IMG/VR virus record: IMGVR_UViG_3300027754_000037
DNA from: a virus
Taxonomy: Duplodnaviria > Caudoviricetes
Direction: 5' to 3' (one strand)
DNA length: 64,000 nucleotides
The translations under genes and the position numbers were made by a program. Below, one piece after another: positions 5,881 to 63,000 of the stretch (position 1 is the first letter of the stretch; every line of letters starts with the position of its first letter). Below the pieces are notes generated by a model. It had not been told where the DNA came from. It made no database searches and worked only from the letters and a program-made list of their open reading frames with translations.

Positions 5881-6771
5881 TTATGACTGTTGAACTATCT
5901 GCTGCTGTGACTGCATCTGTGGCATCTGTTGTTTGTTAGCGCCTGTTGCTTGAGGCTGCGACTGCATCTGTGGCACCCCAGAAACCTGTTGTTGGTTCAT
6001 TCCCGCTCCTTGAGGTGGTGTCCAAGTGACACCTTGAAGTCTTGGGAAGTGGTCAGCACCTAGGAAAAGCAAGCCGCCATTTTTTTTAGCAAATGGCACA
6101 ATCTGATCCTCTCTATTTTTTTCTGCTGCGTCTCCAAGTACGCTGAGTGTATTTCCCTTTTCTTCCCACATTTTATTTTCTGCTTGCAGAAGCCATTGTT
6201 TGAATTCAGCAGCTTTATCTCCTTTGAATTCCTGCTGCTCGAAATCTGGGAATACTTCTCGCACAACATCAAATATTTGTTTTATTTCTGCATCGCTTAG
6301 TTTTTTATTTACACCTTTATTTGCGAAAGTTCCAGCGCCGTTTGCTAGTGCGCTTCTGAGAGCATCGCCTATTGTATTTGAATTTTGGAAGTCGATCTTT
6401 GGTGAGTTCGTATCCCAATTAGCTTTAACGCTGGAGAAGACTGGTACACCGGCATGAAATCCGGGCATAGTGACATCGTCATCGTAGGAGCCGTTGTTTT
6501 TGGGGTTTTGGACACCCAGAACTTTTTCTAAATACGATTTTTCGGGACCGTTACCAAATTGTCCCTCTTCGCCTATGCCCTCATACCGATATCCATACTT
6601 CTCGCAGATATTTTTTGCATATTCTTTTGCGATGTTATCGGATGGTGGTGCAATTTTTGTGGTGCCGGGTTTATCTCCATGTGCTGATGGAATGATAATC
6701 GCATTGCCGACATAGGCGAAACCGTTTCCGGCTTGTTCGATCAAATATAGCCATTCTTTGAAATTCAGCAT
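5881..6771 (-). CDS. Putative head-packaged protein, capsid-targeting-like leader; possible TIKI/TraB/EreA-type fold
   Basis: Starts MLNFKEWLYLIE; SAHG, YEG, NRE and LFLGADHF motifs; Gln-rich tail. Confidence 0.55.
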   Translation of the reverse strand: MLNFKEWLYLIEQAGNGFAYVGNAIIIPSAHGDKPGTTKIAPPSDNIAKEYAKNICEKYGYRYEGIGEEGQFGNGPEKSYLEKVLGVQNPKNNGSYDDDVTMPGFHAGVPVFSSVKANWDTNSPKIDFQNSNTIGDALRSALANGAGTFANKGVNKKLSDAEIKQIFDVVREVFPDFEQQEFKGDKAAEFKQWLLQAENKMWEEKGNTLSVLGDAAEKNREDQIVPFAKKNGGLLFLGADHFPRLQGVTWTPPQGAGMNQQQVSGVPQMQSQPQATGANKQQMPQMQSQQQIVQQS

Positions 6772-6775
6772 AAAT

Positions 6776-6783
6776 TATCTATG
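6776..6783 (-). promoter_or_regulatory. Putative late promoter box CATAGATA, 4 nt before ATG
   Basis: CATAGATA-ATTT-ATG. Confidence 0.6.
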
Positions 6784-6789
6784 CTGAAT

Positions 6790-7443
6790 TTATTTTTTTT
6801 TTCTGATTTCAGAGATGAGATTTTTGAGCAGGTTGGAGGCTTCGTTTATAAGTTGGCTTTTGCGCACATCGATATTGTTTTGGCTGTAGGGTTTTTTGTA
6901 GCCGAAAACAGCGCCTTGGATGCAATTATCGGGAACGAAGATGCCTGAGTAGCGGCATTGGTTAACGATGGGCATGATAGCTTCTTTGGGGCTGATATTG
7001 TCTTGTGTTTTGTAATCAGCCATAGCTAAGGGCAATTTACGGTTATTGTAGTCATTAGCTCCGTCATCGCCGTGTATGAAAAACGCTCCTACTTTGCCTT
7101 CGTAGTGATTTTTGAGCAGTTCCTTGTATTTTCCTGACTGTTCTAATTTGGTGGTTTTATTGGGGTCTTTGATATCTTTTCCCATGAGTTCTTTGGCATC
7201 TTCACGGGTAAGTGTGAGGTTGATGCAGACGAGGCGGTCAAATAGTGCTTTGACTTGGCTGGATGGTGCGGACCAATGTACTGGGGTAAATACGGCAAAG
7301 CCGTGTGCTTTTTCAAGTCTTTCGTAGACATTTTCTTGGTGCATGAGGTCATCTGTGCCATCATTTTTGTCATAGCAACTGCAAGGGTAGTGGCAATGGA
7401 AGCCGTTAGCAGAAGAACTACACAAAAGTTGCATTGTCGGCAA
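6790..7443 (-). CDS. Flavodoxin-like / NADPH-dependent FMN reductase family, N-terminally truncated
   Basis: CHYPCSCY, VFTPVHWSAPSSQVKALFDRLVC and AFFIHGDDG; in-frame TGA at 7476-7474; first Rossmann strand absent. Confidence 0.65.
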   Translation of the reverse strand: MPTMQLLCSSSANGFHCHYPCSCYDKNDGTDDLMHQENVYERLEKAHGFAVFTPVHWSAPSSQVKALFDRLVCINLTLTREDAKELMGKDIKDPNKTTKLEQSGKYKELLKNHYEGKVGAFFIHGDDGANDYNNRKLPLAMADYKTQDNISPKEAIMPIVNQCRYSGIFVPDNCIQGAVFGYKKPYSQNNIDVRKSQLINEASNLLKNLISEIRKKK

Positions 7444-7454
7444 ACAGGCTTCAC

Positions 7455-7664: not shown

Positions 7665-7717
7665 ATTTCAGGGAATACGCTATACAGGGTGTTGTTTCGG
7701 TGTTAAGTTAGTTCTGG

Positions 7718-7987
7718 GTGCAAATTTCATATAGTTATAAATTAATGAATAAAGCTATGAAATACAAGCATGTGTTATATCCTGTGACCAGCCAAGGTAA
7801 GTTGAGGCAGCTTCTCAGATTTTATCAGTCTGATTTAGCATTTGGTAAAACTTCTAGAGACCCTAAAGAGGTAGCTGAGGTTTTGTTGTGGTTTGATAAT
7901 GAAAGTGCCAAATTCAAAAATTCAACTAAAAGGGTGTCGAGTCTTATTGCTGCTCTCTGGTCGCAGTATTGTCGGAGCAATGGTTAA
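7718..7987 (+). CDS. Hypothetical protein
   Basis: ORF of up to 89 aa; true start uncertain. Confidence 0.4.
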   Translation: MQISYSYKLMNKAMKYKHVLYPVTSQGKLRQLLRFYQSDLAFGKTSRDPKEVAEVLLWFDNESAKFKNSTKRVSSLIAALWSQYCRSNG

Positions 7988-9138
7988 TAGCCGCTTGACA
8001 GAAGACCTCGCACCCGCCAACCAGAAAGGTATCTCTTCACAACTATTTTGCCTAGGTCAGCGATAGCTTGGTTTACAACTTTCAAATACCTCTCCACAAG
8101 GACTTTCTTGCTGATATCTACAGATTTTTCTTTGTATAGCATATACATTGCCAGTACGGTATTGAAAGCTCCTATAGCCAGCAAAGTACCTCCCGACAAA
8201 GCTCCAGCAACTGCTGAGAAAGCAGCGCCAGCGACTCCGGCGTACTTCTCGATGCTTGTGAGGGCACTTGAGCTTTGAGGCTTATCTATAATCTCCTGAA
8301 TTTCTCCAGCAAGCAACCTAAACTTAGGATGTTCTTGGTCGATAAATCCTACTAACTCCTCTGTGCTCATATTGTTGATATTGCGCATGATGATTTGAGC
8401 TTCCCTCAAGTTGGCAGAGGGATTGCGTTGTTTGAGGAGCAAGTTTAAAAATTGTTCCAAGCCTTGAAGGGTGGGCTCACCGCTTGAAATTTGTTTCATT
8501 TGGCCTTGTTTCAAATCCATTTTTTTCTTGTCACCAAGGGCACGAAGATCATTCTTGATAGTATCCAAATCGCCGTCAAATTTCTTGGAAATTTTGTCGG
8601 TGCCAGTACGCTTTTCTGGTGTTGCCAACCAATTCTTATAAAAAATGGCAGCTTTATCGTACATTAAATTACGATAATCATTCAGATTGTAGGTCTCATC
8701 GAGTGCTTCTACGCTTTCAAATTTTCTGCCGAACCAGTTAGCAAGAATCCAATTCTTATAGCGAGCTCCCAAGGCTTTTTTATAGTTGTCTAGAGTTAAA
8801 GCAGCACGATAGTAAGCATCGCTTTCCTTATTTTTTTTGGAGTATGCACCGAGTGTTATGCTAATCATCTTGGCCAGCATGTCGTTAAGACCGCCGAGAA
8901 ACCTATTGGCGAGAAATTTCATGTCGGATTGTTTAAGTTTTGAATCAATTTTTGAAGGTGGAGGTGGTTCTGGCATGGGGACATCTTTAATTCCAGAGGC
9001 ATTTAGGGATGCTGCCTTATCATCGCCTTTGGCGTTAATGTCTTCTAATTGCAGTATTTGAATCTTTGACTCTCTTAGGTCAAAGTCATTGATGCTGAAG
9101 CATTCTTCGGTGTTGAGCCATTCTTTAAGATTAAGCAT
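7984..9138 (-). CDS. Putative head-packaged protein with C-terminal hydrophobic segment
   Basis: Starts MLNLKEWLNTEE; segment AGVAGAAFSAVAGALSGGTLLAIGAFNTVLAMYML. Confidence 0.7.
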   Translation of the reverse strand: MLNLKEWLNTEECFSINDFDLRESKIQILQLEDINAKGDDKAASLNASGIKDVPMPEPPPPSKIDSKLKQSDMKFLANRFLGGLNDMLAKMISITLGAYSKKNKESDAYYRAALTLDNYKKALGARYKNWILANWFGRKFESVEALDETYNLNDYRNLMYDKAAIFYKNWLATPEKRTGTDKISKKFDGDLDTIKNDLRALGDKKKMDLKQGQMKQISSGEPTLQGLEQFLNLLLKQRNPSANLREAQIIMRNINNMSTEELVGFIDQEHPKFRLLAGEIQEIIDKPQSSSALTSIEKYAGVAGAAFSAVAGALSGGTLLAIGAFNTVLAMYMLYKEKSVDISKKVLVERYLKVVNQAIADLGKIVVKRYLSGWRVRGLLSSGY

Positions 9139-9142
9139 AATG

Positions 9143-9150
9143 TATCTATA
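9143..9150 (-). promoter_or_regulatory. Putative late promoter box TATAGATA, 4 nt before ATG
   Basis: TATAGATA-CATT-ATG. Confidence 0.6.
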
Positions 9151-9166
9151 TTTTTGGTCTCTGGTT

Positions 9167-9607
9167 TTAAGAGATTTGTTGGTCTGATGTTTTAGGTTTT
9201 CTGATCATGGTATCTTGGTCATCTCTCCGCAGGGAGTTGAAGCCGAATGATTTATAAAAGTTTTTCAATTTCCTTGAGGGAATTCTCTCATCAGTTTTTA
9301 GAGGAACTGCGTTGAGTTCCAGCCAAGTATTTGTCTCATCTGCCATCCTTGTGATTTTTTCCATGAATCTTTGGCCTGCGCCTGTTTTGGTTGGTACGGT
9401 GTGAATTTCTTCGATATGGATGCCACCGGGTTTCATTACCGATGAATTGATTTTGAACATTACAACGGTTTCGCCGTCTGTGTAGTAGTAATTGTGGCCA
9501 AAGGGATTCATTTGTGCATTTACGCTTGCAAAGAATCTACTGATAAATTGTTGGGAATTTGCGGGATTTACTGTTTCAACTGTTAGCCAATCTTTGAAAT
9601 TTAACAT
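9167..9607 (-). CDS. GNAT-fold acetyltransferase with capsid-targeting-like leader
   Basis: MLNFKDWLTVE; IHIEEIHTVPTKTGAGQRFM (motif A); LELNAVP; LKNFYKSFGF (motif B). Confidence 0.75.
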   Translation of the reverse strand: MLNFKDWLTVETVNPANSQQFISRFFASVNAQMNPFGHNYYYTDGETVVMFKINSSVMKPGGIHIEEIHTVPTKTGAGQRFMEKITRMADETNTWLELNAVPLKTDERIPSRKLKNFYKSFGFNSLRRDDQDTMIRKPKTSDQQIS

Positions 9608-9611
9608 AAAT

Positions 9612-9619
9612 TATTTATG
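9612..9619 (-). promoter_or_regulatory. Putative late promoter box CATAAATA, 4 nt before ATG
   Basis: CATAAATA-ATTT-ATG. Confidence 0.6.
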
Positions 9620-9704
9620 TCAAATTATGTTTTTTTTATTGGGCTCATTTGAAACGAGAAACAAAAGTAAAAAAAATTTTAAATCAATCATTCTTTGTTA
9701 AGTC

Positions 9705-10753: not shown

Positions 10754-10757
10754 AAAG

Positions 10758-11755: not shown

Positions 11756-12028
11756 ATGAAGTCATTTGATGAATATCTGGTTGAGACTGCTGCAAAAAAG
11801 GGTGAGAAGAAGAAGTCTGACAAGAGCAGCAGCAATAAAATCATGGCTATGCAGGACATAGCGAACCATCTAAAGTCAATCTTGGCCGATTATGATATTT
11901 CGGTGCGAAGGTTTGTTTGGGATAGGTTGACGAGTGCCAAGGGGCATGAGTTGATGGAAAAGATTTTGCGTAATCCCAAGACTTATTTAAGCATGAGTGA
12001 GTTTACTCAACTGGTAACCAAGAAGTGA
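11756..12028 (+). CDS. Small protein with capsid-targeting-like leader
   Basis: MKSFDEYLVE. Confidence 0.7.
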   Translation: MKSFDEYLVETAAKKGEKKKSDKSSSNKIMAMQDIANHLKSILADYDISVRRFVWDRLTSAKGHELMEKILRNPKTYLSMSEFTQLVTKK

Positions 12029-12721: not shown

Positions 12722-13060
12722 TTAGCATCGACATTTCCATACTCTTAGTGCCGCATTGATTTTACTCTTTGGGTCATTGGCTGTTTTGGCAGATGTATTG
12801 TGTTTTCGCATTCCGCACATGCGACTGCAAAATGATTTGCGGCGACTTTTCGTTTTGTCGGACATCTTGCTTACGCCACCTTTGCGTTCTGCCTCACGCT
12901 TGGTTTCAATACCAGCGTGGATGCCGAGTTTTTTAGCGTAGGCTGGTTTAAGCCCGCCTTCTGGGTGATTCTTTTTGGGGTTATAGCCTTTATATGGCTT
13001 CTTTCCTTCATGTAGGAAATCTTCATCTCGTTCTTGCAGCCATTCGGAAAAAGATTGCAT
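12722..13060 (-). CDS. DUF6321-like basic protein with capsid-targeting-like leader
   Basis: MQSFSEWLQERDE; RRKSFCSRMCG...ALRVWKC. Confidence 0.7.
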   Translation of the reverse strand: MQSFSEWLQERDEDFLHEGKKPYKGYNPKKNHPEGGLKPAYAKKLGIHAGIETKREAERKGGVSKMSDKTKSRRKSFCSRMCGMRKHNTSAKTANDPKSKINAALRVWKCRC

Positions 13061-13082: not shown

Positions 13083-13108
13083 TATTTATGGTTCGTCCTG
13101 TATAAATA
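13083..13108. promoter_or_regulatory. Back-to-back putative late promoter boxes
   Basis: CATAAATA on minus (13083-13090) and TATAAATA on plus (13101-13108) between divergent genes. Confidence 0.7.
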
Positions 13109-13113
13109 TCATT

Positions 13114-13317
13114 ATGAAATTTGCAGACTGGTTATCAAGATTGAACGAGATGATGTCCTCTAAAGGCAAGGGTCATCCATTCAAACCCGGACCTAGGGAT
13201 GTAAAGCCAAAGCCACATGATTTAAAATTGTGTGGTCAGGGAGGAGGGCCGGGGCCTTGTGAGGGTGGTGGAGGTGGAGGTGGAGGTGCTATGCCTGCTG
13301 CGCCTCCTGCTGGTTAA
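13114..13317 (+). CDS. Small Gly/Pro-rich protein with capsid-targeting-like leader
   Basis: MKFADWLSRLNE; TATAAATA 5 nt upstream of ATG. Confidence 0.65.
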   Translation: MKFADWLSRLNEMMSSKGKGHPFKPGPRDVKPKPHDLKLCGQGGGPGPCEGGGGGGGGAMPAAPPAG

Positions 13318-13696: not shown

Positions 13697-14269
13697 TTAT
13701 TCAAAAAAAGTCAACATGCAATTTGGTATTTTTGGCCCTACTATTTTTAAGAATTCTTGAGCACCTTGATTGCTGAATACGATTTCGTGGCGATTGCGAC
13801 ATTGGTGTGTAGTACAATCGCAATCTAGGCTGTTGAAGTAATCTGCTATAATTTTCGTGCCTTCCTCGCCAAACTTATGTGTTCTGAGGTAAGCTTTTCT
13901 TACGCCTTTTCTTCCAGCGTCGATGAACCAAGTCATCCAAGCCTCATCGGTGAGTATTTCCAGAATTTCACGGGTAATTATTTTATCATTATCTTGGTAA
14001 AAAGTTTTGTAGACATCGTTAAAGACTGGGAAGGCGATGCTGTAGCATCGAAATGTGTTTTTGTCTTGTTTGATGGTATTTTGGTCAATTTTGAAGAAAT
14101 CTTGGAGGACTTGGACCTTGTATTGGAGCCAAGTGTGGTTGTTGTCACGCATGGCTAGGTAGCAATTCTTGCCACGGTCTGGTCGAATTATGGACGAACC
14201 GCCGAGAATGGTGCCATACAGGATTTGCCTCTGGCAGTCTTTGAGGCTTGGACCGCATTGATATGTCAT
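13697..14269 (-). CDS. LAGLIDADG_2 (I-SceI-like) protein lacking the catalytic aspartates
   Basis: QILYGTILGGSSI and WMTWFIDAG correspond to GLILGDAY and AYWFMDDG. Confidence 0.75.
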   Translation of the reverse strand: MTYQCGPSLKDCQRQILYGTILGGSSIIRPDRGKNCYLAMRDNNHTWLQYKVQVLQDFFKIDQNTIKQDKNTFRCYSIAFPVFNDVYKTFYQDNDKIITREILEILTDEAWMTWFIDAGRKGVRKAYLRTHKFGEEGTKIIADYFNSLDCDCTTHQCRNRHEIVFSNQGAQEFLKIVGPKIPNCMLTFFE

Positions 14270-15872: not shown

Positions 15873-16409
15873 TTAATCCTCCAAGATACCGGCATCGTTG
15901 AGTGAGCGTGCAAGTTTTATTAGGTGCTTGCACATACCCGGAAGTTCGAGCGGATTGCTTGAACCCGGATTTGTTTTCGCCTCGTACTTCTTCCTGACTG
16001 TGCCGTACAGCGACTTATCTTTTTTGTCTTCAAAATTGAAACGATAATAAAAATCGCTACAGTTACAACGAAGGGCTACTTCGTTGTTGGCATTAAGTTT
16101 GTCGAAAAAGTAATTGCGTCCATCGCTTGCGACTATTTCCACCCAATTCCGATTATCTTTGGAGTTGTGATAATTCACTTTTTTGAAGAGAATTATTGGG
16201 TTGTATTCCTTACCATTTCCTTCGTTCTTCGCCAGACCTTTGACGAATAATGTTCTGACACCCTTGTAGGGTAGCCAATTCATTTGTTTGATAACAATTT
16301 CATCGATTGAGTGTTGTCTTTTAGCTGTTTTGGGAAAAGCCTGTACTGTAGATTTGTATAAATCGTACAGGTTGGATTCCTTGATCAACAGATAATCGTT
16401 GAAATTCAT
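15873..16409 (-). CDS. SWIM-type Zn-finger protein with capsid-targeting-like leader
   Basis: MNFNDYLLIKES; RCNCSDFYYR...GMCKHL. Confidence 0.7.
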   Translation of the reverse strand: MNFNDYLLIKESNLYDLYKSTVQAFPKTAKRQHSIDEIVIKQMNWLPYKGVRTLFVKGLAKNEGNGKEYNPIILFKKVNYHNSKDNRNWVEIVASDGRNYFFDKLNANNEVALRCNCSDFYYRFNFEDKKDKSLYGTVRKKYEAKTNPGSSNPLELPGMCKHLIKLARSLNDAGILED

Positions 16410-16900: not shown

Positions 16901-16938
16901 GGCTGGCTGATTTATTTCAGCCAGCCTCTTCTTTTTTA
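16901..16938. terminator. Intrinsic terminator
   Basis: GGCTGGCTGA-TTTATT-TCAGCCAGCC plus T tract. Confidence 0.85.
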
Positions 16939-18432
16939 TTCGTGGAACATCCAACTGGTCTTTTTTCTATAAGCTCCGTAAATCGACTCCATGAAAGCCT
17001 CATCATCATCGTATTTTGTCCAACTTTTATCGGTTGGTGTTGTTTCAGGCGGTTCAAAAGCAGGAGCTTTAGGAGGTGTTACACCTGTGACATATTGTCT
17101 AAATAGGGCTTTTTCATGATCGGATAATTTTATCCATGTATAGCTTTTTCGGAGATCTATAAATTCTCCTAATTTACGAGGGTCTCTGAATTCTATTGTG
17201 CCATAGTTTATAGCCATACCATTTTCGGGTTCCTTACGAAGACTTTCATAAATTTCCCTAAGTTTATCGTCTGTTATATCGGGTACTGGCTGTTTTCCAC
17301 CTTCAGGTTGACCTTTGGGAGCCATTACACCTGTGACATATTGTCTGAATAGTGCATGTTGATCAGAACTCAGATTGCCCCAGACATTTGCTTTGTTTTC
17401 ATCGATGAACTTTTCGGCCTCTGGTGAAGTATCTTTGAGTACGATATTTTTATTGTTATATGTTGGTTGTTGGCCTTGTCTTACTTTCTCCCAAATATTT
17501 GCGAGCTCTGTTTCTGAAATGCTTTCAGGCGCAATTTCTCCTCCGGGTTGTTCTCCTCCGGGTTGTTCTGCGGGAGCTTGCTGTTGTTGTTGTTTAATGT
17601 TTTTAAGAGTAAATTTTATAAAATGTGCATATTTTGCGAAATCTCGATGAGGTGCGCTGCCGGAAAATTGCAAAGTTTTTTCCATAGCATCGATTTTTGC
17701 GAGCACATTATCGATTGATTTGCGTGCATTTTCTTGGTCGATTTGTGTGCCTTTTTCTTGCCAACCAGTATGAAAACCTTTATTGCCCATCCAACTCATA
17801 ACTCCAGAGCCTAATTGGCGTGCGTAGTCCCACAATCCTTCGTTGAGTTCTTTGCCTTGAAGATTTGCGATATAGAACTCATAAACTATTTCTGGGGACA
17901 TGCCAAATCTTGTAATATCTTTGAGTGTTTGGCGAATTTCATTCTTGATTTTTGCTTTGCTTGATACCGATTCAGGTAGATATGGGTTATTATGGACGGT
18001 GTGATCCTTAACCTCTTCTTTCTCAGCGCCGAAAATTTTGAGACTGTTGATCAGTCCCATGATTGTATCGTTGAATCTGGGGTTATTGATTTGTTGTTGG
18101 AGTGTAGACGACCTTTGAAATCTTGCTGAAAAATCGCTGAGTGCAGATTGAAGTTCCGAGGATGCTTTTTGGACATTATTTTGGCCGAATCCGAATAACT
18201 CAGAGAAAACATCGTTGGGATTGATATTCTTTTGTACAAAATGGAGTTGATGTTGAAGCCACTTTTGTGCAGATTCTTGGAGTTCATTTCTTTGCTGATA
18301 GTGGATTCCATTTGAGAAGTACCATTCAACAAATTTTTTGGGGCTTACGCCAGCTTGCTCCATGAGATCAAGACAATTTTGCAAATTTTTTATATGGTTT
18401 GTAAAACGAAGACTTTCAGAAAATGTTTTCAT
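16936..18432 (-). CDS. Modular repeat protein with capsid-targeting-like leader
   Basis: MKTFSESL; duplicated block ending ALFRQYVTGV; SD GAGG. Confidence 0.75.
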   Translation of the reverse strand: MKTFSESLRFTNHIKNLQNCLDLMEQAGVSPKKFVEWYFSNGIHYQQRNELQESAQKWLQHQLHFVQKNINPNDVFSELFGFGQNNVQKASSELQSALSDFSARFQRSSTLQQQINNPRFNDTIMGLINSLKIFGAEKEEVKDHTVHNNPYLPESVSSKAKIKNEIRQTLKDITRFGMSPEIVYEFYIANLQGKELNEGLWDYARQLGSGVMSWMGNKGFHTGWQEKGTQIDQENARKSIDNVLAKIDAMEKTLQFSGSAPHRDFAKYAHFIKFTLKNIKQQQQQAPAEQPGGEQPGGEIAPESISETELANIWEKVRQGQQPTYNNKNIVLKDTSPEAEKFIDENKANVWGNLSSDQHALFRQYVTGVMAPKGQPEGGKQPVPDITDDKLREIYESLRKEPENGMAINYGTIEFRDPRKLGEFIDLRKSYTWIKLSDHEKALFRQYVTGVTPPKAPAFEPPETTPTDKSWTKYDDDEAFMESIYGAYRKKTSWMFHE

Positions 18433-21212: not shown

Positions 21213-21419
21213 ATGAGGTCTTTTAAAGAATATCTATCAGACAAGCTTTCACATGACCAGCCTCCTAGTGCTGGCGATTTGGGAGACAATCACTCCAATG
21301 CTGACAGGAATTTTGGTCGTAGTGGCGCTAAGTCGAAGAATGTGATGTCCGGGGGGTCTAAGTCGATTAGTGATTTGAATCCAGATCGTTTATTTGGCAA
21401 AAAAAGGTTTAAAAAATGA
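21213..21419 (+). CDS. Small protein with capsid-targeting-like leader
   Basis: MRSFKEYL; basic C-terminus. Confidence 0.65.
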   Translation: MRSFKEYLSDKLSHDQPPSAGDLGDNHSNADRNFGRSGAKSKNVMSGGSKSISDLNPDRLFGKKRFKK

Positions 21420-21721
21420 ATTTTCAAAGATTGTGGGAAAACATGAAGTTGGGGGAAGAGAAAAAGCAGTCTCCCGATGACAAGGCCATGTCTGCAATCA
21501 GAACTGGTTTGGGTTTGCGTGAAGACTTTTGGGATGATTTCAATCTGATTGTGAATAACGCAGAGGGGTTATCAGCCCTGTTGGACATACCTGTGGAGAA
21601 GATATCCACATGGCGCAGCAAAGTTGAAGAGGTTCTTGACAAGGTTCGTGAGGCAGATGGCCAAAGCGAAGTGGGCAAGAACAAGAAAATTGTTAAAACT
21701 GGAATATCGGTGGGAGAATAA
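21416..21721 (+). CDS. Hypothetical protein
   Basis: Coupled 101-aa ORF starting MNFQRLWE. Confidence 0.7.
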   Translation: MNFQRLWENMKLGEEKKQSPDDKAMSAIRTGLGLREDFWDDFNLIVNNAEGLSALLDIPVEKISTWRSKVEEVLDKVREADGQSEVGKNKKIVKTGISVGE

Positions 21722-22104
21722 TGAAAAATTTCCTTGAATTTATGCAGATGAAAGAAGACGATAACCAATCCCAAATTGCACCGGGGGGTCAAACTCCCTT
21801 GGGTCACGCATCTGGCGCTGGAGCACTACCTCAGACTGCTCCCGGTTCTCAACACGAGGAAAAAATCATAGAGGAATTGGGCAATTCTTTGCGCCGTGTT
21901 CTGGAAGAGAAATTATTTCCAGCTTTGGAAAAAAGCCATTTAAGCAAGACTAGTGCCATGAAACTGCTGCAAACAATAGTGAGTGAGGTTGCCAACAAGT
22001 TTGGATTGAGCGCATCGGCAGTTCAACAGACAGGCAAGAATGCTATGACTACGAATTCTGAGCCTCGGATGCCTGCTCCGAATCAACCAACGGCTGCTGG
22101 CTGA
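21721..22104 (+). CDS. Protein with capsid-targeting-like leader
   Basis: MKNFLEFMQMKE; SD GGGAG. Confidence 0.7.
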   Translation: MKNFLEFMQMKEDDNQSQIAPGGQTPLGHASGAGALPQTAPGSQHEEKIIEELGNSLRRVLEEKLFPALEKSHLSKTSAMKLLQTIVSEVANKFGLSASAVQQTGKNAMTTNSEPRMPAPNQPTAAG

Positions 22105-37314: not shown

Positions 37315-38022
37315 ATGGCTTTTGAATTCGTTGAATGGTTGGCAAAAAGAGATATTAGAGAAGATTTTGCAAGCAAATCTGGCGGTAAGAAAAATATTTG
37401 GATTACAATTGGTGCCGATGGCATAGAAAACGATCCTGTATTGGCCCAACAGCTTTTCCGATTGATTGATGACGCATATTCATCAATTGGAGGACATGTG
37501 GAATTCAGATCGCCGCAAGACATTGTAAATGCTTTTAAAAACCAAGATATTTCAGTAATTAAAGCAATTGATGTTGATGAAGATTCCGATCCTGACGCAC
37601 TAAATGTTTACAAAAATAAAGCAGGAGGATTAAAAACAGTAGCTTCTGCTGCAAAAACAAAAAGCGATCAAGCTAAAAGTGCACTCACAACAGGCAAAAA
37701 AGCAGAATTGAATCTTCCGGGTTATTACGGCGAAGTTTCAGATAAAATTGCAAAAGTGCTTCTGGACATAGGTGTTCCTGTCGTTGAAGATGAGGCAACA
37801 GTCAGAAAAGTTTTGCAAAAAGATATCATTTGGTATGGAGAGAATCCACAACTATCCTCTTTGCCTGAAAGAGTCCAACAAACCTTTGGAAAATACAAGG
37901 GTTGGTACGGAAGACAATTGAGAGATGGAAAGGCTCATGTAAAAATAATGGTTGGAAAACCAATTGTTCCTCAACAAAAACAAGATTTGGCTACGCCTGT
38001 AAATAAAGAAATTATTCAGTAA
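37315..38022 (+). CDS. Hypothetical protein with capsid-targeting-like leader
   Basis: MAFEFVEWLAKRDIRE; SD CAGG. Confidence 0.7.
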   Translation: MAFEFVEWLAKRDIREDFASKSGGKKNIWITIGADGIENDPVLAQQLFRLIDDAYSSIGGHVEFRSPQDIVNAFKNQDISVIKAIDVDEDSDPDALNVYKNKAGGLKTVASAAKTKSDQAKSALTTGKKAELNLPGYYGEVSDKIAKVLLDIGVPVVEDEATVRKVLQKDIIWYGENPQLSSLPERVQQTFGKYKGWYGRQLRDGKAHVKIMVGKPIVPQQKQDLATPVNKEIIQ

Positions 38023-39050: not shown

Positions 39051-41651
39051 ATGTACCAAAGTTTCAAAGAATTTTTGTGGAAAACTGCGGATGAGATGCC
39101 GGACAGATCATTTTCATTCCATCAAAAAAACTATTTTCGCAACCTTTTTGAAATGGCAGAGGAAGGAGATCGAATCAGATTTCCTGTGCACATTGATGAA
39201 GAAGATTTAAAATTTCTGAAACAGTTTGACGAAATTTATTGGCCAAGTGCTCTTTATCAACGCTACCAGATGCTTTTTGGTGAAATTGAAAAGATGCACA
39301 ATAGTCGCATGGAAGCTGGAATGGGTAGTCTCAAGGACGAGATTTTAAAAGCAATCAAAACTCAAAACTGGAACAAACTTAAAGAGTTAGAAAGTCATTT
39401 GGTGCTTCCAGATTTAACTATAGATCGTCTGAAGAGAGATTACTCTAATCATTCAAAAAACGACGATGAGCTTAATGATATTGCTGACAAGATGTCCACC
39501 AAGCACATGAAGGAACAAGATTACTTTGTTGGCGATCCAGCAACAGCGGCATTTAGATTTCCCAAGTTCATCAAAAACAAGCAGGGCAAGTTGAAATTCA
39601 TCAACAGAGCCAAAGAAAAAGTTGAGGTTGTCGCCAAGCCCTACTTAAATCGACTGTATCATAGGCTTGAAAGAAGTTATGGGCATCCACATTCAGAGGA
39701 TAGCGGATTAGAGGGCTCAGGCAGGTATGGTTTCGATATGGCGCACCCTGTTCGAGCTATTCCCACACCGGAAGGCTTGGAGCTACCTCATACTACTGCT
39801 GGTATGAAATTCCCCACTTACAAACAAATTGCAGACAGGATGCAAGATTTCTTGGCTCACAATTCACACCGTACATTTGGAGAAATCAAAGGTGATGGCT
39901 TAATTTGGAAAAAAGTACAGAACAGAGAAGACACAGAAACAGCAGGATTTTATCTCAAAAAATTTGAAAAACAGTTTTATAATCAAAACAAAAACAATTC
40001 AGCGGAGTTTGCAACCAAAGACGCAGTCCTTAAGGCTGCTCGCATCCATGCGAAAAAACAAGTTATCAAAATGGCCAAGAAAAAAGAGCTTCTTGGTCCT
40101 CCTGTTCCGGGTGTCGATGAAAGAGGAAGGCCTAGTCGCAGCAAAACAACTCGATTTCCCGTAAAGGTTGCTAAAAATGTTGATGGGCAAGAAGTCCTAG
40201 TAAATCCCCCTCTGTTTCTGCCTTACAAAAAAGAAATCGTCAATGGCAAGGAAAAATTAGTTCCTACTGTAAATCCAGCTTTCTTTTATCGTGAATTGGG
40301 CACAGACGAAAATGATTTTAAGAAAGAGAGAGTCAAGGACAAAGATGGCAACTATATTGTCAGAAATGCCACAGATGAAAACGGCAAGTCTATTTGGAAC
40401 ATTCCTCATGAAATGAGACTTGGACATGAAGGAAAATATGTAAAAGTTAATGACGATGAATTCAAATATGGCAAAGAAGTACAAAAAGATGGTTCTATAG
40501 ATTTCAATCACAATAGTGAATCTTTGCACCACTATATTCCCGGCACCGAAGAATACGAGAAAGTTTTCAGCGACATATTTGCCAATCAAAAGCAAGTTGA
40601 TATGGCTCACAACAAGACTGATGGTCACCATCTAGTGGATAGCGAAGATTCTGGCATGACTGAAGACATTATGCGTGGAATTTTAAACTGTATCAGGATG
40701 GCATCTTGCGGAGAAAAAACAGACTTTGAGAAGTCCAAGATGCTTCAGAGCGTTGATTTGATTTACCAGATTGTTTTCAACACTATGATTATGGACCTGA
40801 GAAAGCATCAAATTGGCAACCTTGATAGCAAAAGAGGCAGAAGAGAATATGCTCGTCATAAAGCTTCAATGTATGCGCAATATGATTTAGGTGGTGGTTC
40901 AAGAAGATTGAGAGCATTGACTCCTGCTGCCCGTAGGAGGCACAGGAGTAATCCCAGAGCAGGAATCCGCAATATTCCAGCTAATCTTGAAGAATATCGT
41001 AACCTTAAAGCCAAATTATATTCCTTGCGTAGCAAGGCTTTGAGAACAGATCAAGAGGTTGTCAGCACTATTCAAACTGGCAAAACAAATCTGACGCAAG
41101 GTTCTTTGAATGCAATGATCAACGCTCTCAAAGGCCGATATGATGTGGCCAACGAATTGCAAACCATGTTGGTTAACATACACTCTCAACACAAAGATCA
41201 GAGCAGCACAGAATCCTCAGAAGATTGGGCAAACAGTCAAATCAGATCGTGGGCAGAAGACAACTACAATTCAAACATGATGTTGCAACAGTTCCAACAA
41301 CTGCCAATTGTGCGAAAAGCTTTAGCAAATGAAGGTCAAGTAGCTCCTACTTCTCAAGAGCGTCCCGGCGAAGCTGCTGCTCCTGTAGTTGCTGGCGCTG
41401 CTCCTGTGTCCAAAATGGGGCCAAAACCAGAGGGTCAAGAATGGTTTCAATTTTTCCAACAAGGCACTCCTCAAAGCATCTTCCATCTTACTCAGGACGA
41501 CAATTTCCATCGACAAGCCAGCAACAATTTGCTAACAGCCGTAAAAAGTCGAATAGAGAAAAACTCTAGTAAGTACAACCCTGACGATTACAGGGCTGCA
41601 ATTGATAGAGTTGAAGCCACCATGCGTCAAAGAGGCATAAGAATAAGGTGA
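39051..41651 (+). CDS. Large (~866 aa) protein with capsid-targeting-like leader
   Basis: MYQSFKEFL; long ORF in the neck/tail gene region. Confidence 0.75.
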   Translation: MYQSFKEFLWKTADEMPDRSFSFHQKNYFRNLFEMAEEGDRIRFPVHIDEEDLKFLKQFDEIYWPSALYQRYQMLFGEIEKMHNSRMEAGMGSLKDEILKAIKTQNWNKLKELESHLVLPDLTIDRLKRDYSNHSKNDDELNDIADKMSTKHMKEQDYFVGDPATAAFRFPKFIKNKQGKLKFINRAKEKVEVVAKPYLNRLYHRLERSYGHPHSEDSGLEGSGRYGFDMAHPVRAIPTPEGLELPHTTAGMKFPTYKQIADRMQDFLAHNSHRTFGEIKGDGLIWKKVQNREDTETAGFYLKKFEKQFYNQNKNNSAEFATKDAVLKAARIHAKKQVIKMAKKKELLGPPVPGVDERGRPSRSKTTRFPVKVAKNVDGQEVLVNPPLFLPYKKEIVNGKEKLVPTVNPAFFYRELGTDENDFKKERVKDKDGNYIVRNATDENGKSIWNIPHEMRLGHEGKYVKVNDDEFKYGKEVQKDGSIDFNHNSESLHHYIPGTEEYEKVFSDIFANQKQVDMAHNKTDGHHLVDSEDSGMTEDIMRGILNCIRMASCGEKTDFEKSKMLQSVDLIYQIVFNTMIMDLRKHQIGNLDSKRGRREYARHKASMYAQYDLGGGSRRLRALTPAARRRHRSNPRAGIRNIPANLEEYRNLKAKLYSLRSKALRTDQEVVSTIQTGKTNLTQGSLNAMINALKGRYDVANELQTMLVNIHSQHKDQSSTESSEDWANSQIRSWAEDNYNSNMMLQQFQQLPIVRKALANEGQVAPTSQERPGEAAAPVVAGAAPVSKMGPKPEGQEWFQFFQQGTPQSIFHLTQDDNFHRQASNNLLTAVKSRIEKNSSKYNPDDYRAAIDRVEATMRQRGIRIR

Positions 41652-41654: not shown

Positions 41655-41921
41655 ATGGCTAGTTGGATGGACTACATGATGAATCCTAGGACTCATCATT
41701 TAAAAAAAGCGATGTATGAAATACTGAAGGAACGATATGGACCACATGACCAGATACTCGAAAGAGTTTCATCGTCTTTGGTGACTGAATCTGATATTCA
41801 GGATTTTTTTAAATTAATTACTTCCATTTATGAAACAGCTTATTTAAAAGCCGTAAATGATCACTCGGATGCTTTGACTAAATTGGGATTACATGCTAAA
41901 GTGGTATCGGACAAAAACTAG
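41655..41921 (+). CDS. Hypothetical protein
   Basis: 88-aa ORF; SD AAGG. Confidence 0.65.
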   Translation: MASWMDYMMNPRTHHLKKAMYEILKERYGPHDQILERVSSSLVTESDIQDFFKLITSIYETAYLKAVNDHSDALTKLGLHAKVVSDKN

Positions 41922-43128: not shown

Positions 43129-44508
43129 ATGAGCGATTTAAGTTTTAGAGAATGGCTGTATGCTGAAGAATTAGAAGACATGGGCTCAACATCGTCTGAT
43201 CCTGTTTCTAATACTTCTTCTTCTAGTTTGATACCTGTGCGTAAAAGAACTGGAAGGACTAGTAGTTCAGAAACAGAACCTGTTGCAGAGCCAGCAGGTT
43301 ACACTAGATGGGAAAAACCCGGAGGTGGCTTGTATGAACCTCCCAATAAAAAGTTTGGTTTCTCTGGAAAAGAACCCAGAGAATACAGACGAGTCAGTAA
43401 GAACTTAGGTTCCTACGAAGCCGATCCTGCTCACAACAATATATTGAAAGAAATTCTTGGATTCACTCCAGTAAGTGGCAAGTCATGGACCAAGGAAATC
43501 GGAGGTTTTCTCTTGTTCAAATTTAATAACACTAAAGACAAGAATGAAGTAAATCAAAAAATAAACACAGCAATAAATGATTTTGTTGTGCATTACAATA
43601 ATCCAAAATTCGGCTCAATATTTGCTGATGATGAAGGCAACAAGTCTTTTGTAAGCTTCAAAGACAAAATTGAAGCAACGGAAACTCCTATTGAAAAATC
43701 AAATATTGTCAAGTCTGCTATTAGAAAAATAGTTAGCCAATTGATTGGCATAGATGCAAAAGAGACTGGCAAAATGCATCGTGCAAGACTACCGCAAAAG
43801 GTTTTAGGTCGTAGAACTGGAACTCCTGTTCGGCAACTTACAATCGACGATTTGGAGAGTTCGGTTGGCACTCCCGATTATGAGAACCTGTTGCGTCAGA
43901 TGGACCCAGCTACGGGAGGCAAAAGAGCAGCCCGAGACTGGATGGGCAACAGATATGCGACCGAAAAGGTTGCAAAAGCCTTAAAGGGAGACCCCACTAA
44001 AGCTGTGAAATTGATGTCGCAAATCTTGGGCAGAGAAACCACTCCTGAAGAAATCAATCAGATGAGAAAAGATTTGGAAGCCCAAGGATTTTCTTTACCA
44101 CAAAGAATTTTTGATCTAGCAGGACAAGCAACTCCAGAGACGCAAGCTTTCATGCGAGATGCTAAAGATTATATTGCCAAAGAGCTCATGGATGAACTGC
44201 ATCGCAAACAGACGACAAGAAGTCGTGGTCCTCAAACTGGAGCAGGTGCAAAAATTCAAAAAGTTGCAATTGAAATGTTGGATGATTTTATCGCTGGCAA
44301 GGAAATCACAAACACCATTAAAGACAAATATCCAGAAATCACAAATCCGAGCAGGGTTCTCGACGCAATTAGATCGGCAACTAGAAAAGTTGTCGATGAA
44401 TATGGCACAGAAGAACAAAAGCGTATGTTCCAAGCATACACAAGCAGGATTGAGAGAGGCAAACTTCAGGCAAGAGCCAACAGAGCAAGACCTACAGAGG
44501 ATAGTTAA
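43129..44508 (+). CDS. Protein with capsid-targeting-like leader
   Basis: MSDLSFREWLYAEE. Confidence 0.75.
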   Translation: MSDLSFREWLYAEELEDMGSTSSDPVSNTSSSSLIPVRKRTGRTSSSETEPVAEPAGYTRWEKPGGGLYEPPNKKFGFSGKEPREYRRVSKNLGSYEADPAHNNILKEILGFTPVSGKSWTKEIGGFLLFKFNNTKDKNEVNQKINTAINDFVVHYNNPKFGSIFADDEGNKSFVSFKDKIEATETPIEKSNIVKSAIRKIVSQLIGIDAKETGKMHRARLPQKVLGRRTGTPVRQLTIDDLESSVGTPDYENLLRQMDPATGGKRAARDWMGNRYATEKVAKALKGDPTKAVKLMSQILGRETTPEEINQMRKDLEAQGFSLPQRIFDLAGQATPETQAFMRDAKDYIAKELMDELHRKQTTRSRGPQTGAGAKIQKVAIEMLDDFIAGKEITNTIKDKYPEITNPSRVLDAIRSATRKVVDEYGTEEQKRMFQAYTSRIERGKLQARANRARPTEDS

Positions 44509-45060: not shown

Positions 45061-45486
45061 ATGAAGACATTTTATGAATTTTTAAAACAAATGTGGAACG
45101 AGCAAGTTCCTGTTCAAAACGCCCCTGTGGCTGGACAACCTCAAGGAGCACAGCCTGCTACTGCTGCGCCTCCCGGTCAACAAGGTGCGCAACAGCAACA
45201 AGCCGGAGGCAGAGGGGTATCTCCAGCAGTTCCGCCTCCAGATAAGGCGTTTAACGATATTCTAACAACCGCAGCTAAAAATAAAGATTTCGTAACTGCT
45301 TTGACGCAAAATGCTTCCAAGGTAACTGATCCCAACATGAAAAAGTTTTTGACATCATTTGCTCAAAGCTTGAATAACTCACAACAAGCTGCTAAATCCG
45401 GCGGTCAAGCACAACAGGCTCAACAAGGCCAAGCTGCTCCACAAGCTGGTGGTGCTGGCATGGCTGGAGGAGCTCCTACTGCTTGA
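45061..45486 (+). CDS. Q/A/G-rich protein with capsid-targeting-like leader
   Basis: MKTFYEFLKQMWNE; SD GAGG. Confidence 0.75.
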   Translation: MKTFYEFLKQMWNEQVPVQNAPVAGQPQGAQPATAAPPGQQGAQQQQAGGRGVSPAVPPPDKAFNDILTTAAKNKDFVTALTQNASKVTDPNMKKFLTSFAQSLNNSQQAAKSGGQAQQAQQGQAAPQAGGAGMAGGAPTA

Positions 45487-51702: not shown

Positions 51703-52251
51703 TCAAGGATCGCTAACTATATTATGTCTTTTGTAAAGATTTTTAGTTTTTATAGCTGGTAATTTTTGATCCATTTGTATTTGCACAAAGTCAAGATATT
51801 TTCTTTTTAATTCGTTATAATTGCGAGCAGTTCGATAAAGTTGTCTAAAATGGTTCAGAATACAAGTTGTCATATAATTGAAAGCTTTGCCTTTTTTAGG
51901 ATCAAAGCGATCAATTTTTTCAAAGCAGATCATGACACCCTCTTGAATGGCATCGTCTTGATCAATTAAATTAAACTTAGCATATCGAACGATGTTTTGG
52001 GACAGGGTATAAAAAGCAAGCGCAAGCTCATCTTGAACCCCGTGATAATTGCTAGATATGAGTCTAAAATCCTGTTCAACAACAATCCAAGCCGAGGGTT
52101 TTTGGTATTTTCCTCGTTTCATGGTCCTTTGCTGAGTTCCAATGATATCATCCATGAGGAGTTGACATTTGATTCTTTCTTTCTTGGTTTTCTGGAATTT
52201 CACTATCAAAGCTTCAAATGTTCTGTTGTTTAAATATTCTGTCGCCATCAA
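51703..52251 (-). CDS. gp55: Late-transcription sigma factor (T4 gp55-like)
   Basis: YLNNRTF, DDAIQEGVMICFEKIDRFDPKK and AFNYMTTCILNHF. Confidence 0.85.
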   Translation of the reverse strand: MMATEYLNNRTFEALIVKFQKTKKERIKCQLLMDDIIGTQQRTMKRGKYQKPSAWIVVEQDFRLISSNYHGVQDELALAFYTLSQNIVRYAKFNLIDQDDAIQEGVMICFEKIDRFDPKKGKAFNYMTTCILNHFRQLYRTARNYNELKRKYLDFVQIQMDQKLPAIKTKNLYKRHNIVSDP

Positions 52252-59996: not shown

Positions 59997-60003
59997 TCCT
60001 CTT

Positions 60004-60044: not shown

Positions 60045-60046
60045 GG

Positions 60047-60664: not shown

Positions 60665-61209
60665 GATTTTTTATGAGTCAGAAAGAACTCATCTTCCAGT
60701 TTGAGTAAATGATCAAGAGCCACGGCGGTCCACTTGCCGTATTTCATGGAATATTTGAATTCATATCCCTCTAGATTTTCAGTTATAAGAAATGCCAGCC
60801 AAGGTTTTCTGGTTTTCTTCCAGCACATCATGGGTTTTCGTCCGCTGCGTCTTGCATCGGACATAGCCTGTTCCAAAAAACCGTCCAACTCGCTGTTGCC
60901 ACGCATGAAGACGCTGCTCATGTCGATGCTGTCGTAGCCGCCCTTGCTTTCAATGGCAAATCCAAAATCTTCTGGGACAACGATGTCTCCGCTGAAAACT
61001 TGTTTTGCCTGTTCGCTCAACATGGTTTGCGACCAACGATTGCCTGAACCAACTGAACGACTGAAAGGCTTACCAAAACGAGATGTCAGAAGCTTGCTCA
61101 ATTCGAGCTCGTTGCGGTTGCCCTTCTTCTTGCCGTTCACTTTCTTTTTCCTTGGTTTCAAAAGATCGCCATCGATGATGAAATCATCCATATTTTCAAA
61201 ATCATGCAT
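60661..61209 (-). CDS. Holliday junction resolvase-like PD-(D/E)xK nuclease
   Basis: KKKGNRNELEL, SGDIV and AIESK. Confidence 0.75.
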   Translation of the reverse strand: MHDFENMDDFIIDGDLLKPRKKKVNGKKKGNRNELELSKLLTSRFGKPFSRSVGSGNRWSQTMLSEQAKQVFSGDIVVPEDFGFAIESKGGYDSIDMSSVFMRGNSELDGFLEQAMSDARRSGRKPMMCWKKTRKPWLAFLITENLEGYEFKYSMKYGKWTAVALDHLLKLEDEFFLTHKKS

Positions 61210-61266
61210 TAATCCTCGATCCCGTCCTAGCAGGACGGTAAAGCTTCACCTTATTTAGAGAGTATT

Positions 61267-62400
61267 TTAGCGGTTAATATTTGCGCTTAGATTTTCAAGT
61301 TCTTTTTTCTTGGACTCAAGCTCTGCAATCAGTTCTTCAAATTCGATCTTGCCGATAGACTGTTCTTGAACTAGCTGTTCGCTGTATTGTCTGATGTTGT
61401 TTACGATATCAATTATTTCATCGCATTTTCTGTCAACCACATCGACACGAAGTTCATCTTTGTTTTTTAAATATTCATTTTTCGGTTTTCTGTATTCGTC
61501 TCTTTCGTTCAGTTGCGTGACGATTTGAAATTTGGGTTCTACAAAATTAAGATCATGTCGCTTGCCATCAAATTGCCAAGGTTTGTAATTGTCTTTGAAT
61601 ATCTCAAACTTGTGAACATCTTTAACTTGCGTTTCTGAATCAGTCAGTCTGAAGTACCAAACTTGATTGTGGGGGAATTCAATAAGTTTATGAGACCTTG
61701 AAATACCTTTGATATCATGCACGCCTTCTTCCCATATTGCTGGTTCAGACATGAAGAATATTTGACCTAATTGCTCCCTGAGATCAACAAGCCACAGCGG
61801 TCTATGCTGGTTTCTAAAAAGCCATAGGTGCCTATCTCCTTCTAGACCTCTTTCGCCCAGAGCAACTGCCATGTGTCCTTCGTTGATGAAGCTGAATGTG
61901 TTGCGAATTCCAGCAAGTCTTTTTGGGTAAAGATCATCTGGAAGTTCCAGATCACAGTTTTCGGCATTTTCGATAATTCGTAAAATAATTTCTGAATCAC
62001 AATTTGAATTTACTACAAATTTTTGCTTGAGCGCATTGTATTCGATGTCATCAACACGACCATTATGTACCAATCCCAACGATCTGTCTGTGCTAGTGAA
62101 CGGATGATTGTTTTTGTTGAAGGCTGGTTCGCCAACACCTTTAGAAGCTCCTCTTGCGTGAACAAGCAAAAGATTTAGGTCATAACTTTGTATTTGTTTC
62201 CAAACTAAGCTTTTAACAAATTGACTAGAGCGTGTTGGTTCCTTGTGGTAAAGCAAAGCACCATCTTTGCCTGTTTCAACACCCCAATAACCGCTTGCGT
62301 CAATTCCTCTGGTTTCGCTTTTTTCAAACAGTCTGGTAATGATCTGATAAGAAACCAAAGGCTTAGTTGACTTGCCTATGAAGCCTGCGATGCCACAAAT
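61267..62400 (-). CDS. Class II (Ntn) glutamine amidotransferase; apparent ATT start
   Basis: Frame extends upstream of the track start to ATT-CGIAGFIG; RG.DA.G, HARGAS, NNHPF, HNG and DSE motifs. Confidence 0.8.
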   Translation of the reverse strand: MCGIAGFIGKSTKPLVSYQIITRLFEKSETRGIDASGYWGVETGKDGALLYHKEPTRSSQFVKSLVWKQIQSYDLNLLLVHARGASKGVGEPAFNKNNHPFTSTDRSLGLVHNGRVDDIEYNALKQKFVVNSNCDSEIILRIIENAENCDLELPDDLYPKRLAGIRNTFSFINEGHMAVALGERGLEGDRHLWLFRNQHRPLWLVDLREQLGQIFFMSEPAIWEEGVHDIKGISRSHKLIEFPHNQVWYFRLTDSETQVKDVHKFEIFKDNYKPWQFDGKRHDLNFVEPKFQIVTQLNERDEYRKPKNEYLKNKDELRVDVVDRKCDEIIDIVNNIRQYSEQLVQEQSIGKIEFEELIAELESKKKELENLSANINR

Positions 62401-62415
62401 AATACACCTACCTTT

Positions 62416-63000
62416 TTAGAATGCATCCATAGGACCGCTGCTACCACCCAGAGGAGGCGCAGCCATATCTTGGCCTGTGCCTACGGGAGGTGTGCCCTGT
62501 GGAGATTGATCAAGATTCATTGGCCCCGATGGCGCTCCCTGTGAGGCGGTTTTGCCACCTTTTTCTGCTTCTGGCGGTTGAGTAGGCTCTGGAGGTTTTG
62601 TTTCCGTACCACCCGTACCCTTTTTATCTCCGGTATTTTTCTTGCCACTCTCTGTCGGGGTAAGCTTGTTGATCGGAATGCCAAGATCAGCAACTAGTTT
62701 TTCCAAGGTGTCAGAAACACCTTGAATAATTCCCGGCATATCATCTTTTTCTTCAATTGACTTCATCAAAGCTACGCCGACCTTCTGCAAAACTAAAAGA
62801 TTTTTCCTCTCCTCTTTTGGCCAACTACTGTGCAAAACACGGCGAATCTGATTTACAATTCTTTGTGAATAGGAAATCATGTCACGAGTGCCAAGATTTT
62901 TGGCATCATCTCGCAATTCATGCACAGCAGTTAAAATATTGCCGACTTTTTGGGCCAAATAAGCCTGCTGCTCATTTAGAAGAAATTCTTTGAAACGCAT
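62416..63000 (-). CDS. Protein with capsid-targeting-like leader and Pro/Gly-rich tail
   Basis: MRFKEFLLNE; TATAAATA-N4-ATG. Confidence 0.75.
   Translation of the reverse strand: MRFKEFLLNEQQAYLAQKVGNILTAVHELRDDAKNLGTRDMISYSQRIVNQIRRVLHSSWPKEERKNLLVLQKVGVALMKSIEEKDDMPGIIQGVSDTLEKLVADLGIPINKLTPTESGKKNTGDKKGTGGTETKPPEPTQPPEAEKGGKTASQGAPSGPMNLDQSPQGTPPVGTGQDMAAPPLGGSSGPMDAF

Follow-up and report, generated by a model that had tools for sequence, protein, structure and literature searches.

A T4-type capsid targeting sequence probably marks 15 to 20 proteins encoded in 64 kb of an uncultured T4-like phage

Introduction

Why should about 20 genes of one phage encode unrelated proteins that begin with nearly the same short peptide? 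The question is raised by the viral record IMGVR_UViG_3300027754_000037, of which a stretch of 64,000 nucleotides was analysed (the window; positions 159,303-223,302 of a 239,391-bp JGI freshwater lake metagenome contig, sample 3300009181). A preliminary description of the window had taken the peptide for a leader of the kind that directs the internal proteins of phage T4 into the prohead. We find that about 15 of these leaders are firm and that the peptide is, with a probability of roughly 0.7, a T4-type capsid targeting sequence (CTS) carried by about 15-20 proteins within the 64 kb. Its capsid probably receives an unusually large load of proteins.

The CTS that T4's internal proteins carry was reportedly described by Mullaney and Black in 1996. 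For the packaging of the internal protein IPIII, its first 10 residues are enough. Its targeting is determined mainly by residues 4 and 7 and its processing by residues 8 and 10, and the prohead protease gp21 cleaves after L/I-x-E (reviewed in PMC9026906; for the CTS see also PMC3012670). All three T4 internal proteins are inhibitors of type IV restriction enzymes (PMC12373910).

Leader peptides in the window

The 20 N-termini listed in the preliminary description were all found to read as quoted, at the coordinates given there. A set of 99 proteins from the window was scored for a strict motif, [FY]-x-[ED]-[WFY]-[LMIV], that begins at one of the residues 2-7. Of 594 N-terminal positions 14 had the motif, and of the 19,450 others 5 (odds ratio 94, p = 3.5e-18), which bears out the expected N-terminal enrichment. 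When the window was translated in six frames, 16 of the 38 motif matches lay shortly after the initial Met of an open reading frame (ORF). The DNA form of the motif gave 7 matches against 0.59 expected, a number reached in none of 100 shuffles. Four of the chosen starts (16409, 29365, 39051 and 45061) lie inside a longer ORF. Each of them is plausible, with a Shine-Dalgarno-like sequence at 29365, 39051 and 45061 and a late-promoter-like box at 16409. Independent JGI gene calls used the same starts for all 8 leader genes that they cover, 16409 included.

The strict motif is carried by 14 genes, which are named here by their start positions. Nine of them lie on the forward strand: MKSFDEYLVE (11756-12028; 90 residues, basic), MKFADWLSRLNE (13114-13317; 67 residues, Gly/Pro-rich, with an exact TATAAATA 5 nucleotides before the ATG), MRSFKEYL (21213-21419; 68 residues, basic), MKNFLEFMQMKE (21721-22104; 127 residues), MMWIKFSEWVELRE (36539-37303; 254 residues), MAFEFVEWLAKRDIRE (37315-38022; 235 residues), MYQSFKEFL (39051-41651; 866 residues, basic, of no known family), MSDLSFREWLYAEE (43129-44508; 459 residues) and MKTFYEFL (45061-45486; 141 residues, rich in Q, A, G and P). 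On the reverse strand are MLNFKEWLYLIE (5881-6771; 296 residues with a Q-rich tail), MLNFKDWLTVE (9167-9607; 146 residues, a small GNAT acetyltransferase by its predicted fold), MQSFSEWLQE (12722-13060; 112 residues with a DUF6321 body in Pfam), MNFNDYLLIKE (15873-16409; 178 residues, phrog_18980) and MRFKEFLLNE (62416-63000; 194 residues, with an exact TATAAATA 4 nucleotides before the ATG). A near-strict member, MLNLKEWLNTEE (7984-9138, reverse; 384 residues with a hydrophobic C-terminal segment), starts MLNLKEWL and differs from its neighbours only by the Leu at position 4.

The remaining five of the proposed 20 members fit only a loose pattern of aromatic residues at i and i+3. They are MKTFSESL (16936-18432, reverse; 498 residues), a weak member with no aromatic residue at position 7, MLSYTKWKTLNE with the start MLSYTKWK (28268-29365, reverse; 365 residues), the paralogs MKTFVKWA (33503-33733, forward; 76 residues) and MRTFVQWA (33733-34038, forward; 101 residues), and MKNFSTWR (35919-36512, reverse; 197 residues). 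The protein of 16936-18432 has a second and better motif, KKFVEWYF, near residue 32 and duplicated segments with ALFRQYVTGV; its true targeting element may be internal. Possible, uncertain additions to the set are MASWMDYMMN with a Trp at position 4 (41655-41921, forward) and MNFQRLWENMKLGEE with an aromatic spacing of 4 (21416-21721, forward).

The bodies behind the leaders had been called unrelated, and an all-against-all BLASTP comparison found no similarity among them except between the paralogs 33503 and 33733, which leaves 19 distinct bodies. As had also been claimed for the metabolic genes, the genes of metabolism and replication in the window were found without the N-terminal motif. 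These encode a Dam methylase, a Prim-Pol, a GATase, a sulfotransferase, glycosyltransferases, an AAA ATPase and a PDDEXK protein.

Relation to the T4 targeting sequence

The leaders named for comparison were read from the T4 record, where ipII and ipIII begin with MKTYQEFIAE-A and ipI with MKTFKEF (MKTFKEFTSTTTPVSTITE-A). All strict members of the window keep an aromatic residue at position 4, an acidic one at 6, an aromatic one at 7 and Leu, Met or Val at 8. The targeting determinants, F/Y at 4 (Leu in the near-strict member) and W/F/Y at 7, are present in the 14 strict members and the near-strict one. The positions conserved in the window are those that mutagenesis identified as driving targeting and processing of the T4 CTS, and the leaders MKSFDEYLVE and MQSFSEWLQE match the T4 leader position by position. 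Within 10 residues after the leader, a cleavage motif [LIVM]-x-E was present in 9 of the 14 strict members, compared to 12% of internal windows (p = 7e-6).

A DNA pattern was then derived from the window leaders only (ATG and two codons, then F/Y, a further codon, E/D, W/F/Y-like and xTx) and searched in other phages with the reversed pattern as the control. The pattern retrieved ipII and ipIII of T4, plus gene 61.1. It matched 26 times in LR756511 (control 3), 7, 14, 9 and 11 times in four large IMG/VR relatives (controls 2, 2, 0 and 1) and 7 times in Xanthomonas phage XacN1 (control 2). In phiKZ the matches numbered 8 (control 10), in Bacillus phage G 4 (control 7), in a T4-like cyanophage 2 (control 2) and in Microcystis phage Mel-JY01 3 (control 2). 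Because of these counts, the tag in this form is a feature of the T-even phages and of this uncultured clade, and not of all large or T4-like phages.

The product of T4 gene 61.1 (NC_000866, 18966-19130, reverse strand; 54 residues) begins with MKTFKEFIKE, a leader of the ipI type with an I-K-E site. By this resemblance, gp61.1 may be an unrecognised CTS-bearing protein of T4 itself.

Head genes of the phage

Judged from its genes, the source of the window is an uncultured, distant T4-like myovirus. A gp21-type prohead serine protease (Peptidase_S77, Pfam E 1.5e-24) is encoded at 678-1337 on the forward strand and is the presumed leader-removing enzyme. Its identity to T4 gp21 is 32%, and it retains the ELxHP and SSRG blocks. 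The major capsid protein gp23 (3388-4824, forward; Pfam Gp23 E 1.4e-86) has an L-L-E/M-N-E pair that aligned with the L-T-E cleavage site of T4 gp23. Between the two lies a candidate gp22-like scaffold gene (2458-3357, forward), assigned by this position and by the composition of its product, which is acidic and helical-looking and has 299 residues. The product has 12 [LI]xE sites compared to 7.1 expected (p = 0.03) and gave no match in a Pfam search. A predicted complex of this product and residues 1-35 of the 11756 protein gave a score, without controls, of 0.00, which counts neither for nor against binding. The large terminase and a T4-type portal, the latter carrying two inteins, are encoded just upstream of the window. 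Of the head morphogenesis module of T4, the phage thus has the S77 protease, gp23 and the portal, with the scaffold placed by position and composition only. Also encoded in the window are gp15, tail sheath, tail tube and baseplate proteins (Pfam).

By gp23, the closest database phage is the uncultured 595-kb LR756511 with 81% identity. In IMG/VR, 382 gp23 relatives of 83-94% identity were found, some on contigs of 220-530 kb. A nucleotide search of the phage collection with the window gave only a single weak match.

The portal gene lies about 5.8-2.0 kb upstream of the window on the forward strand and encodes 1258 residues, with the Portal_T4 domain split by two intein-splicing regions. The head region also contains inserted genes of a selfish or nuclease type. 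A TnsA-like endonuclease (4939-5763, forward) comes directly after gp23, a LAGLIDADG homing endonuclease (13697-14269, reverse) sits among the cargo genes, and an ORF of 300 residues on the reverse strand (1404-2306) is located between the gp21-type and the gp22-like gene.

Peptide and DNA conservation

The codons of the leaders vary (TTC or TTT, GAA, GAT or GAC, and six Leu codons), and outside a tandem trio of genes the upstream DNA is at background identity (mean 0.35). As the leaders differ both in their codons and in the DNA before them, it is the peptide that is under selection.

The trio consists of 6771, 9138 and 9607. Here the identity was 47-77% upstream of the start, 75-88% in codons 1-8 and 14-29% after codon 8. 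Late-like boxes CATAGATA, TATAGATA and CATAAATA stand 4 nucleotides before the three ATG codons on the reverse strand (within 6749-6801, 9116-9168 and 9585-9637). The trio looks like a portable cassette of promoter plus leader, which gives a hint at how new cargo gains the tag. For all other leader genes, a DNA cassette was rejected as the source of the conservation because of the background identity upstream.

Leaders were found both behind ordinary Shine-Dalgarno sites (half of them) and directly behind late-promoter-like boxes. A box with at most one mismatch from TATAAATA was present within 40 nucleotides upstream of 7 of 20 leader genes and of 7 of 72 others (p = 0.011), and about nine leaders have a late-like box 4-5 nucleotides before the ATG. 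A gp55-like late sigma factor of 182 residues with region 2 only is encoded at 51703-52251 on the reverse strand (Pfam Sigma70_r2 E 2.6e-7), which supports the use of T4-type late promoters. As putative late promoters, the boxes fit, together with this factor, the late expression that is needed for loading a prohead. Boxes resembling TATAAATA are found at this short distance for example at 13093-13113, 63001-63012 and 9608-9619; if transcription begins in the T4 manner, the resulting late mRNAs would be wholly or almost leaderless.

Placement of the leader

The use of the leader on related bodies was surveyed in the homologs of the DUF6321 protein of 12722-13060, and the counts refer to the 120 listed of 146 homologs. 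An N-terminal leader was present in 36, none in 25, two motifs in 7 and a single internal motif in 44. Many of the leaderless homologs are 93-residue forms that begin right at the body, and some of those with an internal motif are over-long gene calls. In many others with an internal motif, the N-terminus is a Cys-rich domain, after which NE-SFSFTEWLKNRDE leads on to the body; W-L-x-[LI]-R-E usually comes after the leader there. The most conserved positions were F at 4 with 4.2 bits and W at 7 with 3.5 bits, values in which the selection of the homologs is partly circular. In four homologs of the GNAT protein, MLNFK(D/K)W(L/F) was kept and the linker varied in sequence and length.

Tandem leaders were seen in DUF6321 relatives (MRTFDEFIENK followed by TKTFEQFLEEKKPYKG), and in some a Cys-rich CWKxY...PNC domain is fused ahead of the internal leader, suggesting polyprotein-like cargo that would be cut at Glu sites. 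A C-terminal motif was found in a NUDIX hydrolase (35473-35922, reverse; Pfam NUDIX at residues 4-121), which ends in NKNE-SFKEWIVRRTATLF. The motif (NKNE SFKEWIVRR, from residue 137 of 149) lies past the end of the domain with a Glu site before it, and it may be a C-terminal targeting peptide, comparable to the C-terminal processing of T4 Alt. The tag is not strictly N-terminal but also occurs internally, in tandem and at the C-terminus. These placements suggest a docking peptide that can be moved about, with Glu sites on its flanks.

Bodies of the tagged proteins

The cargo had been described as a set of dozens of enzymes and low-complexity proteins, with GNAT, HEXXH peptidase, SWIM, acidic and Q-rich bodies named. 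The GNAT assignment is supported for 9167-9607. An Atlas search gave a score of 0.95 with 191-193 shared features to Acetyltransf_1 clusters. In the AlphaFold2 model (pLDDT 79), the leader appears as a short helix of its own (residues 4-9) in front of the GNAT fold. Among the 50 PDB matches listed, almost all, and every top one, are GNAT proteins, with E-values of only about 1e-3. They include the anti-CRISPR AcrVA5 and tRNA-acetylating toxins. A TKTGAG segment of the protein is conserved; a Pfam search with it gave no match.

For the HEXXH peptidase, the motif itself is present (HEATH at residue 201 of the 36539-37303 protein) and the peptidase remains putative, assigned from weak M85-like metalloprotease leads in the Atlas. 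The SWIM assignment of 15873-16409 was not confirmed by Pfam, and its CxC...CxH spacing is 41 residues. The acidic and Q-rich bodies were confirmed by eye. The protein of 28268-29365 is an extreme polyanion of long (D/E)H-D-E-E and D-E repeats with Lys-rich flanks and two CxxC pairs, and its loose leader ends in L-N-E.

Pfam and PHROGs gave nothing useful for most of the cargo, and an Atlas search with the 866-residue protein (39051-41651) found nothing. The remaining bodies are ORFans that are small and basic, hyper-acidic and repetitive, rich in Q, G and P, or large and basic with 459-866 residues. With one supported enzyme (GNAT) and one putative one (HExxH), the claim of dozens of enzymes goes further than these results, because most of the cargo consists of ORFans or low-complexity proteins.

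Distribution along the genome

The leader genes are not evenly spread. Of the 20, 19 are located between gp23, which ends at 4824, and gp15, which starts at 46499, in a 41-kb variable insert at the border of the head and tail modules. The expansion of leaders is concentrated in this hyperplastic region and varies between relatives.

Discussion

Taken together, the leaders of the window are best read as CTS peptides of the T4 type. We infer docking, cleavage after Glu, packaging and injection by analogy with T4. The leader would form a short helical docking motif with an aromatic residue at position 4, an acidic one at 6, an aromatic one at 7 and Leu, Met, Ile or Val at 8. Late in infection, it would bind to the scaffolding core of the assembling prohead, and the fused cargo would be enclosed upon closure of the gp23 shell. 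The gp21-type protease (678-1337) would cut after a nearby Glu, as a rule that of a [LIVM]-x-E within positions 10-14 of the leader, which would release the mature protein in the head. At least some of the cargo would exit with the DNA and act in the next host cell, as proposed by comparison with the T4 internal proteins. Candidates for such delivery are the small GNAT, the putative HExxH enzyme and the small basic, acidic and Q-rich proteins.

Several observations weigh against this interpretation. Five of the 20 members rest on the loose pattern, and some of them may be chance matches because its chance rate is 5% per Met. No [LIVM]-x-E follows 5 of the 14 strict leaders; four of these have another x-x-E and 21213 is without a nearby Glu. 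The non-canonical sites include TVE, AEE, ADE and WNE. The cargo proteins of 459-866 residues are much larger than the T4 internal proteins. The gp22-like protein had no similarity to T4 gp22 in BLASTP, and the closest cultured phages reach only 32-34% identity in gp23. The leader pattern was not enriched in the cyanophage and the Microcystis phage, which are T4-like. In the 48 kb upstream of the window, where core structural and replication genes are located, only 2 of 54 genes have strict leaders (MKQSFLDYLNKKE and MKTFEEFVVQKE), and in a close relative of 223 kb, 89% identical in gp23, leaders are carried by about 7 of 314 genes. Because of these low numbers, the expansion is local and lineage-specific and not general to the clade.

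The same targeting could serve a mainly structural or physical cargo, such as counter-ions of the DNA, inner-body or core-accessory proteins, or aids for the ejection of a 239-kb genome. Many of the proteins have a body that is either small with a basic pI of 9.4-10, hyper-acidic, or of low complexity with Q, G and P. The T4 internal proteins are abundant and embedded in the DNA (PMC9026906), and inner-body proteins are found in heads of the phiKZ type (PMC3012670). However, at least one cargo protein has an enzyme fold typical of host modifiers, the GNAT with AcrVA5 and the tRNA-acetylating toxins in its matches. The set of cargo proteins differs sharply among close relatives, as is expected of arms-race genes and not of structural ones, and all three T4 internal proteins are anti-restriction proteins (PMC12373910). 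We consider a mainly structural role unlikely, though it is the strongest of the alternatives.

That the peptide is a signal unrelated to the capsid, for example a degron, an address read by a chaperone or leading to another compartment, or a helix for membrane association, appears improbable. A short amphipathic helix with two aromatic residues could bind many partners, and the window has a McsA-like gene (UVR motif only). Against such a signal, the motif agrees with the experimentally defined CTS of T4 in the residues critical for function and picks up T4 ip genes, a gp21-type cleavage motif follows the leader in 9 of the 14 strict members, and among the phages tested the motif was found only in those with a T4 head module. 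The leaders are also too weakly hydrophobic for signal peptides. A conservation of the nucleic acid, either as a promoter and translation-start cassette copied before many genes or as a requirement of leaderless translation, is very improbable. It would account for the trio with its shared upstream DNA and codons 1-8 and for the late-like boxes close to about nine leaders, but outside the trio the peptide is kept by synonymous or conservative changes next to upstream DNA at background identity. Half of the leaders stand behind ordinary Shine-Dalgarno sites, and the same peptide is found at internal, tandem and C-terminal positions, where a start signal is needless.

If the CTS reading is true, the T4 tag is ancient, being common to phages with about 31% gp23 identity, and scalable at least five-fold. 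Proteins injected along with phage DNA act ahead of all expression of phage genes and are prime candidates for anti-defence functions. If the tag works as in T4, the first-strike proteins of uncultured large phages could be listed from their sequences, and the natural variants and placements of the tag could be used for engineering the delivery of proteins by phage capsids. Tentatively, and at somewhat less than even odds, we further propose that the motif is a position-independent docking module with flanking protease sites, by which a widespread uncultured clade of T4-like jumbo phages loads dozens of proteins, polyprotein-like fusions and enzymes. In that case injected proteomes, with their candidate anti-defence and takeover proteins, would be readable directly from sequence.

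Comparison with known systems

Our literature searches, which had a thin reach into subscription journals, turned up no description of an expanded CTS set for uncultured T4-like phages. The trio of the window recalls the PeSL cassettes of T4-type phages (PMC2839356, PMC4122927), where conserved promoter-bearing DNA at gene borders could swap downstream genes. PeSLs consist of an early promoter and a stem-loop and are noncoding, whereas the DNA shared by the trio includes a late-like box plus codons 1-8 and is limited to three genes. In phage P1, the Dar system likewise puts anti-defence proteins into the capsid that are delivered with the DNA. However, their incorporation is ordered by interactions of Dar and Hdf proteins without a common cleavable tag, and P1 belongs to another head lineage. 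The phiKZ-like giants (phiKZ, 201phi2-1, SPN3US) have about 50 different head proteins, a gp21-homologous protease that cuts after Glu, and some proteins that are ejected. Their propeptides are long, often of more than 100 residues, with no common short leader, and the cleavage motif is S/A-x-E.

The closest likeness is to T4 itself. The CTS of IPI, IPII and IPIII is, like the leader of the window, an N-terminal peptide of 10 residues with aromatic residues at 4 and 7, a hydrophobic one at 8 and, less uniformly in the window, Glu at about 10. In both phages the mature parts are unrelated, the gp21 S77 protease, the scaffold and gp23 are encoded nearby, and the genes lie in variable regions. 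The two phages are only about 31% identical in gp23. About 15-20 tagged genes are found in the 64 kb of the window, whereas T4 as a whole has 3 and the T-even phages together have about 10 families. The window leaders prefer Trp at position 7, and their predicted cleavage site is often at 12-14 and not at 10. The cargo of the window reaches 866 residues and includes candidate enzymes, and its type of tag is also found in tandem, internally and at the C-terminus. The mechanism is already known from T4; new are its scale, the enzyme-sized cargo and the flexible placement of the tag.

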